From the IMG/VR virus record IMGVR_UViG_2537561710_000021: a DNA stretch of 3,571 nt, one strand, 5' to 3'. This stretch comes from a virus. Lineage: Duplodnaviria > Heunggongvirae > Uroviricota > Caudoviricetes. Made by a program: the position numbers. How positions within the stretch are numbered: position 1 is the stretch's first letter; each line of letters opens with the position of its first letter. Below, in pieces: positions 1-3,000 of the stretch.

Positions 1-3000
1 CTCACTACAGCTTATCCAACCATCCGGAGTTACCGGATAGTTGGTTGACGTTTCCGAGATTTCCCGAAAATTATTGGTTGACGAACCCTTATTTTCCCGA
101 AAGTTTCCAGCCTGAAGCATGGCGGCGCGGTGACACCAGATAATCCAGCCAAGCGCCATATCCCATACCATGTAATCTCTATCGCCATTTTTTGCTCTGC
201 GGCGATCTACAGATTCTCCGAAACGCTTCTCCATAAATAATTCATAGGCTGCTCGTTCATCCGATACTGCTGCCAGTGATGCCAGCGCAATCCGTGCCAG
301 CTCTTCCGCTTCTTCTGCTGGAAGCACAACGTTGCTACCCGGTCCGTATGTTTCGCGCCAATGCTGGATTGTCAGCAGTCGATCTTTGGTAATAGTGGTC
401 ATAGCTATTTCACCTTAATCTCAACATTTCGCAGCTTTAGCTCTACTGGCATGTCTGACTTTCCTGTTAATGCTAATGCGAGATTTTCTGGAGTAATGAG
501 AGCAGTTATTGTTTTCCCCATCGCCAGACGAATAATCATTCGTATTTCGCGATCGTCACATGCTCCTGGTCGAACAATTGATATTTGTCCGTTCATCTCA
601 CTCTCCTTTGATGCGAATGCCAGCGACGCGTAATGCGTGTTCTAGGTCAATCAGGTAAAGCCAACTGCCATTTTCTTTAGGTATCATGACATGTCGCTCA
701 TCTGCATTTATCGGGTGTCCATATCGAAGGTCGTAGCGAGTCGGTAATTGAACTTCCCGCGCTTCCAGTTCAGCAATACGCTTGCTCCCATCAGAGATAA
801 CGCCTTCGTAATACTCACGCTGCTCGTTGAGTTGTGATTTTGCTTCTTCCAGTCCATCCAGCAAATCAGCGATAATATCCGCTTCCCGATGACGGATGTG
901 ACGCTTAAACGCAGCAAGAGCCGCATCACAATCCCGTTCAGCATTTGGGCTGTCCGGGGTAGCCTGATACCACGCCAGCGTCGATTGATAGTTTTGTGCT
1001 GCCTCACGCAGTGCCTGATAGTCAATCTTGCCCACTGGCTGCCTCCTTTGCCGGGATTTCTAACTTTTGAGTGGTTGTATCAAATTCAAACAACTTAACC
1101 ACGTCATCAAACAGGACATAATCACCATCAGGATCTTCAGTCATATCAGCGCCACAATCCTGACCGCACGAGTCGCAACCTCCCATATCAAGCTCGTATC
1201 GCTTCAGGTTCGCGATATTTGATAAATTCAGCGCCAGTATAGCCAGATCATTAACCTCGTCTGCGATATACCCTGCACCATGTCCATACATTTCAATGCG
1301 GGATATGATTTCTTCTACACGTTGTTTTGTGATCGTCATTTTTCTCTTCACTCCGATATACAAGGATTACTACACCCCCTCTGCTGATTGCGCGAGCTGG
1401 ATCCCCTGGTTCCATGCCGTCAATTCCGAAGGCTTCGAAAAATGCATCCATTGCCTTCTGGCGTTGCTCCTGCTTACGGCGTTTATTCCATTTTTTCATG
1501 AACAACAGTGACAGCCATCGTCCGCTGCAGAACATGATGTAGAAATAACCAAGGAGCGCTAGGCCGGTGTTCAGGGCTGTATCGATCGTTATCGTGGTGT
1601 TGATGTTCACTTCACACCTCTCTGTTTGTTGATAAGTTCAATATCCTGCTGGCAACTGGCGCAAGCTCTGCATCCACGAACAGCCAGGCGTCGCCGCTCA
1701 TCTATCGGATCGCCACACTCGCAACAATGAGTAGCAGATGGGGCATTACTATCGGATTTGTATTTTTGCAGGGAGAGATTGCGCTGCAATTCTTCGATTT
1801 CAGCGGCGTTGTCGATGATATCTGCCATTTTCCTTTCCTTCAGGCATGAAAAAAGGAGCCGAAGCTCCTTTGGTTTTAGAATTCGAATTGCCTTGCCCGC
1901 AGGCTTTTCAGCATTGGTCTGGCCCGCTGAACTACGAAACTCGACTGGTCAAGCCGTGCCGCCTCTCTCAGTAGCACATCTCTGTTCTTCGTCACCATGT
2001 AGATGGTCTCAAACGCAATGTCATACAGCTTGTTCGTGTATGAGGAGTTCAGCTCTTTCATGATCGGATACAGGTGTTTGCTGAGGTCCTGGGCTTTTTC
2101 CATCCAGAGTTGCATGTAGCAGAGGAGGATGATTTCCTCGTCTGTGAATTGTTGCTGTGGTTCTGCTTGTGCCGACTGCATGTTGCGAAGTTTCTTTTCG
2201 CACTCGATGAAGTATCTGCGTATCTGTCGGCCTTTTTCGTTACGCTCTACCATCGCCGTTTCTTTGGCTGTATCGAGGGTAAGGTGGTAGTCTTTTTTCC
2301 CTCGCCCATAACCTATTTCCCGTTTCTGGGAAATAGCTATATAGTCCTGATTTTCAACGAATCCGTACTCTTCAATACGTTCTGTAATCCACGATGCAAA
2401 GCGTTTACCTACTCCAAGAAAAGTATGTAAATCACGGGCATTAACGAGAAGAGTGGTTTCGTTGGCGATAGTGCCGTTGAATACGGGGATGAGTTGACTG
2501 GTCATGATGACCTCCTTATTTGTTTAGTTTATAACCGCCAGTTAGTAGCTGGCGGTCGGGTGTCAACTGAGCCAAATAAGAAGCTCTGGGCATATTCCCC
2601 TTGCGGGTGTTGTATTACGCCTCTCCACCCGACCTTTGTACGGATGTAACTATGCCAAATTGCAGGCATAAAAAAGCCGCAAAGCTATCGGGTGCGGAGA
2701 CCGCTTATTTGTTCAGTGCGGTCAGTATGCGATAGCTCTGGAGGATTTGTCAATCAGCGGAATATTGATGAACGGGTAACGGTAAATGCCTCATCCAGAA
2801 AATTAACGCAAATTCGCATCGCAAACTTGCGTTAATTATCTGAAATATCAAGTTAAATCCCCTTAAATGTTTGGGGCACTATTGGGGCAAAATGTGGTTG
2901 TTTGGGGCATATTTGGGGCAAAAAAGAACGTATAAAGAACGGTGTAAAATTGATTTCTTCATGGTCAAAATGAGGTGTAACAGATTGAAAAATATATGCT

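Follow-up and report, generated by a model that had tools for sequence, protein, structure and literature searches.

Does a short open reading frame (ORF) near one end of a Shiga toxin (Stx) prophage encode a working regulator of host RNA polymerase (RNAP), and how does it stand to the regulator known from phage lambda, Orf73? The stretch of DNA analysed here, called the window, is 3,571 nucleotides long and comes from a virus of the Caudoviricetes (IMG/VR record IMGVR_UViG_2537561710_000021). The gene in question, called the traR-like gene below, lies at 1607-1828 on the minus strand. We examined its sequence, motifs, homology, fold, selection and genomic position. We observed that it belongs to the TraR subfamily, and not to DksA proper, and that it stands to lambda orf73 as a paralogue, not an orthologue. 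By analogy with characterised relatives, it very probably encodes a functional member of the subfamily that would bind the RNAP secondary channel and inhibit rRNA and ribosomal-protein promoters without guanosine tetraphosphate (ppGpp).

The ORF runs from ATG to TGA and has 73 codons plus the stop, exactly where the first-pass annotation had placed a 73-residue protein with a C-x2-C-x17-C-x2-C motif. The product (MADIIDNAAEIEELQRNLSLQKYKSDSNAPSATHCCECGDPIDERRRLAVRGCRACASCQQDIELINKQRGVK) contains six cysteines (residues 35, 36, 38, 53, 56 and 59). Four of these make up the predicted zinc-binding motif C35-x2-C38-x17-C56-x2-C59, and C36 and C53 are extra, giving the segments 'CCEC' and 'GCRACASC'. 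The C4 zinc ribbon spans codons 35-59 (1652-1726, minus strand), as judged from homologue conservation and model confidence. It includes P41, E44, R46 and R47, which are equivalent to TraR P43, E46, R48 and R49. Codons 3-8 (1805-1822, minus strand) read D-I-I-D-N-A, a DxxDxA motif that aligns with TraR D3, D6 and A8.

The protein matched Pfam family PF01258 (zf-dskA_traR) at 31.8 bits, above the gathering score of 24.9 (E = 1.5e-7). It also matched phrog_54, 'DksA-like zinc-finger protein', over residues 1-71 (E = 5e-24). The family match is far from chance. Three plus-strand ORFs overlap the gene (1626-1730, 1727-1849 and 1758-2063); we set them aside because homology and purifying selection favour the minus-strand frame. 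The TraR-subfamily assignment made in the first-pass annotation is borne out by these scores, by the identity to lambda Orf73 and by the hallmark residues described below. It is correct but already known: the gene is annotated in the TraR/DksA family, and the RefSeq name of the protein is 'TraR/DksA family transcriptional regulator'.

Compared with lambda Orf73, the protein showed 71% identity and 86% positives over 73/73 residues without gaps (BLASTP, E = 3e-39). Both have the MADIID start, the DxxDxA motif, the THCCECGDPIDERRRL core, six cysteines, an ExxRL motif and E64. Residues 18-30 are largely replaced (LSLQKYKSDSNAP versus TAIKMRRLNHQAI). F-plasmid TraR (5W1S, 6N57) is more distant at 31-32% identity, and it aligns end to end with the traR-like protein. 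It likewise has 73 residues, a single N-terminal helix with DxxDxA, a CxxC-x17-CxxC ribbon, an RR pair and a C-terminal helix with a conserved Glu (TraR E66, paired with E64 here). TraR differs in having four cysteines, P45 in place of D43 and K50 in place of L48; it is encoded in a conjugation operon and, unlike lambda Orf73, is a strong promoter activator. In the PDB sequence search, TraR residues 2-64 aligned to residues 2-62 of the query. The F TraR sequence used in these comparisons was confirmed by its 180.5 bits against the TraR equivalog model and by the PDB alignment. In the alignment with F TraR and lambda Orf73 that had been proposed as a check, the acidic N-terminal motif is conserved exactly (D3, D6, A8). 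Every hallmark taken from the literature as defining TraR-type proteins (PMC9239242, PMC6970531, PMC8614690) is present: DxxDxA, the C4 motif, R46/R47, E44, and E64 in the C-terminal helix. The ExxRK motif of TraR reads ExxRL, the form found in active lambda Orf73.

These residues are also conserved among close homologues (n = 91). C35, C38, C56 and C59 were invariant (91/91), and D3, D6, R46 and R47 were each kept in 89/91, A8 and E64 each in 90/91, and E44 in 65/91. A profile search of 1.84 billion representative proteins returned 2891 relatives at E <= 0.001. The best 150 of these included 104 full-length, C4-bearing representatives, among which DxxDxA was found in 85 and the 17-residue spacer in 102.

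The two extra cysteines behave differently. C53 is near-invariant in the clade (87/91), and 49 of the 104 wider representatives have Cys there and 45 have Val. Position 36 varies freely (E in 27/91, C in 25/91, A in 12/91), with Cys in only 4 of the 104. The first-pass annotation had reported both residues and had called them unusual. They are present as reported, but the description as unusual does not hold, given that C53 occurs in nearly all close homologues and that lambda Orf73 matches all six cysteines in position. The extra cysteines have already been discussed, and were placed at TraR positions 38 and 55 (PMC9239242). Gapped BLAST and MAFFT alignments to TraR paired C36 with TraR C37 in the first knuckle. 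We rejected this pairing in favour of the ungapped C35-x2-C38 reading, because C35 is invariant, C36 is variable and the published placement agrees.

We modelled the protein with AlphaFold2, using an alignment, and searched the model against the PDB with Foldseek. The model (mean predicted local distance difference test (pLDDT) score 80.9) consists of a helix at residues 8-23, the zinc ribbon and a helix at residues 57-70. The zinc-ribbon fold expected by the first-pass annotation was present, with pLDDT 92-95 over its core (residues 31-70). The top PDB matches were YbiI (2KGO), RNAP-bound TraR (6N57_M, 5W1S_M) and DksA. Matches to RNAP-bound TraR had a template modelling (TM) score of 0.54-0.55 over 67-71 columns (probability 0.99-1.00).

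YbiI and DksA have the zf-dskA_traR zinc ribbon in common with the traR-like protein, and YbiI was the best PDB match in both sequence and fold. YbiI is longer (88-residue family model; 108-residue PDB construct), and only query residues 30-65 align to it. In DksA, which has ~140-142 residues in its PDB chains, the acidic tip is borne by a coiled coil, and the protein depends on ppGpp. Whereas a DksA proper has ~150 residues and a coiled coil with a DxxDxA tip, the traR-like protein has 73 residues and no coiled coil; an NCBIfam scan gave no DksA model at E 0.1 or better. Its length and its single N-terminal helix (8-23) agree with the size and shape of the TraR subfamily (~70-75 residues).

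Only for TraR, lambda Orf73 and four further homologues is there experimental proof of RNAP secondary-channel binding, inhibition of rrnB P1 without ppGpp and complementation of a dksA deletion (PMC9239242). Lambda Orf73 binds RNAP at the DksA site in competition with DksA, and inhibits rrnB P1 and rpsT P2 without ppGpp (half-maximal inhibitory concentration ~50 nM for rrnB P1). D3 and D6 are required for this activity, and induced Orf73 complements a dksA deletion. It slows host growth and raises phage yield, or burst size, ~4-fold. It activates promoters poorly or not at all, whereas TraR activates strongly (all PMC9239242). In TraR, the N-terminal helix extends to the RNAP active site with the DxxDxA motif at its tip, and the function of this motif has been shown for both TraR and lambda Orf73 (PMC9239242). 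The secondary-channel mechanism put forward in the first-pass annotation therefore gains support by analogy, from a relative of 71% identity.

From TraR and lambda Orf73, we infer RNAP binding and promoter effects for the traR-like protein as follows; the expression timing inferred for it is taken up below. It would bind no DNA, and its N-terminal helix would be inserted into the secondary channel of host RNAP, placing the D3-x-x-D6-x-A8 tip beside the active site. The zinc-ribbon domain would engage the beta' rim helices through R46 and beta'Si3 through E44 and R47, and the C-terminal helix would contact the beta lobe-Si1 through E64. The resulting change in RNAP conformation would inhibit promoters with short-lived open complexes, such as those for rRNA and ribosomal proteins, without ppGpp. 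Such inhibition would divert host resources to phage production. Activation of promoters is probably poor or absent, because the six cysteines and ExxRL are kept as in lambda Orf73.

The gene had also been described as prophage-borne, and this holds. At 99.7% identity, window positions 1336-3571 correspond to the right-hand end of Sp5, the Stx2 prophage of E. coli O157:H7 Sakai, together with the host wrbA'/ymdF region. The Sakai equivalent of the traR-like gene is ECs_1250. Judged by sequence, a lambdoid prophage of the Sp5/933W type has inserted in wrbA, and positions 1336-3055 form its attR end. The match to uninterrupted K-12 wrbA-ymdF sets in at 3039 (BLAST) and phage-only records match up to 3042-3055, which puts the attR overlap at ~3039-3055. 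Stx1-converting phage NC_004913 encodes an identical protein, Stx1_p079 ('DksA-like zinc-finger protein'), and phages PA4 and PA44 matched the window protein at 100% (tblastn). The exact protein was found in 8244 assembly-index blocks, with identical copies across many E. coli assemblies. At every index place read, the gene was flanked by ant and DUF4752 as one module at the end of a prophage, and at least three integration contexts were represented.

The window gene is a second copy in these phages, a point absent from the first-pass annotation. In the circular Stx1 phage, the order on one strand is exo, orf60a, orf63, orf61, traR #1 (Stx1_p099), ea22-like ... xis, int, attP, ant, traR #2, DUF4752 and DUF551/ea22-like. 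Copy #1, between orf61 and ea22, is the orthologue of lambda orf73 (97% nucleotide identity; two residue differences in the protein). The protein of copy #2, the window gene, has 71% identity to that of copy #1 and also to lambda Orf73. Copy #2 lies beyond attP between ant and DUF4752, and not at the lambda orf73 position in the pL operon, which has orf61 and ea22 as neighbours and xis and int downstream. We found matches in 403 phage records and at 39 extra places, so that a subset of the phages carries two copies.

Phage 933W has the same arrangement, with its second copy adjoining ant at the attR end. This copy, L0141 or ST933Wp79 ('DksA-like zinc-finger protein'; L004 3698-3919), is 92% identical to the window protein. 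Residues 1-48 are identical at the nucleotide level, whereas residues 49-73 are of the lambda Orf73 type, and an ea22-like gene, not DUF4752, lies downstream. On this evidence from the sequence, L0141 arose by recombination between the two paralogues. Its crossover point is in the nucleotide-identical zinc-finger segment, which the Stx1 phage annotation labels 'arrangement e'. The two Orf73 sequences of 933W, orf73 and L0141, were already noted in a review (PMC8614690), where L0141 has its single passing mention in the open-access literature, as a second Orf73.

The immediate surroundings of the gene bear on how it may be expressed. Immediately upstream and in the same orientation is ant (1876-2505, minus strand), which encodes an AntA/P22AR-type antirepressor of 209 residues (PF08346, E = 3.7e-27; PF10548; phrog_377, E = 1.8e-98). 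Downstream is a DUF4752 gene with a GTG start (1293-1610, minus strand; PF15944, E = 1.3e-39). This start overlaps the TGA stop of the traR-like gene by 4 nucleotides (GTGA), as in the Sakai annotation (ECs_1250/ECs_1249), and the overlap suggests translational coupling.

Between the ant stop (1876) and the traR-like start (1828), RNA folding gave a hairpin, AAAGGAGC-UUCG-GCUCCUUU followed by UUU (1849-1871, minus strand). It is identical in 12 related loci, one of which has a different ant-type gene upstream, and a GGAGC...GCTCC-T6 hairpin likewise precedes lambda orf73. A consensus terminator scan did not list the hairpin, probably because the stem absorbs part of the U-run. The fold of the 61 nucleotides around it was not significant (z-score -0.73). 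For these two reasons, we call it terminator-like on form and conservation only.

The traR-like gene is most likely read within an ant / traR-like / DUF4752 transcript. Upstream of ant is a promoter-like site at 2753-2724 (minus strand; TTGACA-18-CATACT, 10/12 matches). The transcript probably starts there, or in the leftward early operon, reading across intact attP on the circular genome. The gene lies across attP from the int end of this leftward early (pL-type) operon. Because of this position, transcription probably either begins in the ant promoter region and reads through the hairpin or arrives from the leftward early operon. Leftward early transcripts, anti-terminated if lambda-like, would reach the gene only on a circular, excised or infecting genome.

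Beyond the prophage end, the remaining 5' end of host wrbA (~18 codons, start at 3092) occupies 3039-3092 on the minus strand and points into the prophage, as defined by BLAST against K-12 wrbA-ymdF. The wrbA promoter region (3093-3250) is retained with these codons and faces ant and the traR-like gene, so that host-driven read-in to the module is geometrically possible in a lysogen.

Several points weigh against the reading of the traR-like protein as a functional RNAP regulator of the TraR type. Its full-length match to the TraR family model of NCBIfam, TIGR02419 (E = 5e-14), scored 52.6 bits, under the 59.7 cutoff. Lambda Orf73, which is experimentally validated, also falls short at 54.7; we therefore take the cutoff to be stricter than the functional family and dropped the low score as a failure of membership. 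The Foldseek E-values were weak (0.006-0.02; best 5.7e-3), as expected for a 73-residue query, and the fold match was counted as support, not proof. At the position of TraR P45, a residue of importance for binding, the protein has an Asp (D43), as does lambda Orf73. Residues 18-30, the outer N-terminal helix and linker and the least confident part of the model (pLDDT 58-73), contain 12 of the 21 substitutions relative to lambda Orf73, and affinity or partner specificity could differ because of this clustering. The promoter scan showed no sigma-70-like promoter directly upstream of the gene, and the terminator-like hairpin precedes it. In the open-access literature, we found no experiment on the attP-distal paralogue and none on ECs1250.

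Selection speaks to whether the second copy does anything at all. The window copy gave a ratio of nonsynonymous to synonymous divergence (dN/dS) of 0.15 against lambda orf73, 0.14 against the 933W copy and 0.14-0.15 against copy #1. Synonymous divergence (dS) from the other paralogue was ~1.4-1.6. The low dN/dS indicates that the second traR copy is maintained by selection.

Two diverged paralogues kept in one phage at just 71% identity, both under purifying selection, could also mean that the protein binds the RNAP secondary channel in a role that has moved away from that of the exo-xis copy. It might form a separate module with Ant, act at a different time, or have altered affinity or promoter effects. 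Possible timings are after excision or circularisation only, or in the lysogen from a wrbA or ant promoter. In keeping with this, the ant / traR-like / DUF4752 module stays together beside att in the integration contexts noted above, and integration parts it from the leftward early operon and places it downstream of the inward-facing wrbA 5' end. The promoter-like site upstream of ant and the cluster of differences in residues 18-30 point the same way. Yet all residues of known functional importance are identical to lambda Orf73, and the 933W chimera, with residues 1-48 of the copy #2 type and 49-73 of the lambda Orf73 type, argues that the halves of the paralogues are interchangeable. Expression data for the gene were not found in the literature. 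We regard a diverged role as improbable.

A more specific and speculative version, which we also think unlikely, is that the attP-distal copy is non-redundant and serves with Ant as an excision- or lysogeny-linked switch. It would be made only on the circular genome, or else weakly in the lysogen, driven by the ant promoter or a stationary-phase wrbA promoter, and C53 could make the zinc ribbon redox-sensitive. If so, circle-dependent expression would report completed excision or fresh infection, and a redox-sensitive C53 would link oxidative stress to the reprogramming of host transcription in Stx lysogens.

The same selection values, a dN/dS of 0.14-0.15 at that synonymous divergence, make it very improbable that the second copy is superfluous, does nothing by itself and owes its presence to recombination between repeated exo-xis-type modules. 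The motif residues, the start, the stop and the coupling to DUF4752 are all intact, and the identical protein recurs in thousands of assemblies. This is set against a region that is a mosaic of repeats ('arrangement c/d/e/f' in the Stx1 phage annotation), a recombinant copy in 933W and a window that is shuffled relative to Sakai left of 1336. A conventional DNA-binding zinc-finger transcription factor, which the generic RefSeq name 'transcriptional regulator' alone would favour, is hardly credible: Pfam, NCBIfam and PHROG scans detected no DNA-binding domain, the best structural matches include RNAP-bound TraR and DksA, and those members of the TraR/DksA family that have been characterised work through RNAP and do not bind DNA (PMC9239242).

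Other features of the window were noted alongside. The ant leader contains a full-length match to sRNA-Xcc1 (Rfam RF02221; 2546-2634, minus strand; 69.1 bits against a gathering score of 53), which ends ~40 nucleotides before the ant start codon. Further matches were found in L009 (1771-1859, 2311-2396 and 3190-3279), L003 (7211-7299), L004 (4637-4725), L007 (3192-3280) and L011 (3195-3283). L009 has three tandem AntA/Bro-N genes, each with its own sRNA-Xcc1 copy upstream, and in APSE phages the motif has been reported upstream of an ORF6N-domain gene. Rather than a free-standing small RNA, it resembles a cis leader or a cassette element that accompanies ant-type genes.

Just upstream of the promoter-like site at 2753-2724 is a near-perfect palindrome (2796-2842) with 22-nucleotide arms, 86% complementary and 3 nucleotides apart (-28.3 kcal/mol, z = -6.2). 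It may serve as an operator, or it may block transcription that comes in from attR/wrbA. At 2868-2925, there are four direct copies of TTTGGGGCA/TTGGGGCA, arranged as two 25-nucleotide units 31 nucleotides apart. They lie ~115-170 nucleotides inside the prophage from the attR overlap and are plausibly candidate arm-type integrase binding sites.

At the left of the window, positions 1-1336 depart from Sakai Sp5. The exo-xis-type genes there make up another mosaic, with an unnamed phrog_3126 gene, an ead/Ea22-like gene, a phrog_1222 gene and an ORF running off the left end. Stx1a phages match positions 1-630 at 97.9%. In the collections searched, coverage of the window stays below 80% for every complete E. 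coli genome and phage record. At the right, host ymdF (3465-3571, plus strand) is a short allele of 35 residues (MANHRGG...GKSDN) versus 57 in K-12; part of the repeated (KGG) region seems to have been lost in frame. Both the 35-residue and the 57-residue forms are present in other genomes. The 57-residue ORF listed from 3398 begins upstream of the real ymdF start.

Through TraR-type proteins, phages and plasmids impose a stringent-like stop of ribosome synthesis without ppGpp. In Stx phages, a shut-down of this type could affect burst size and toxin output.

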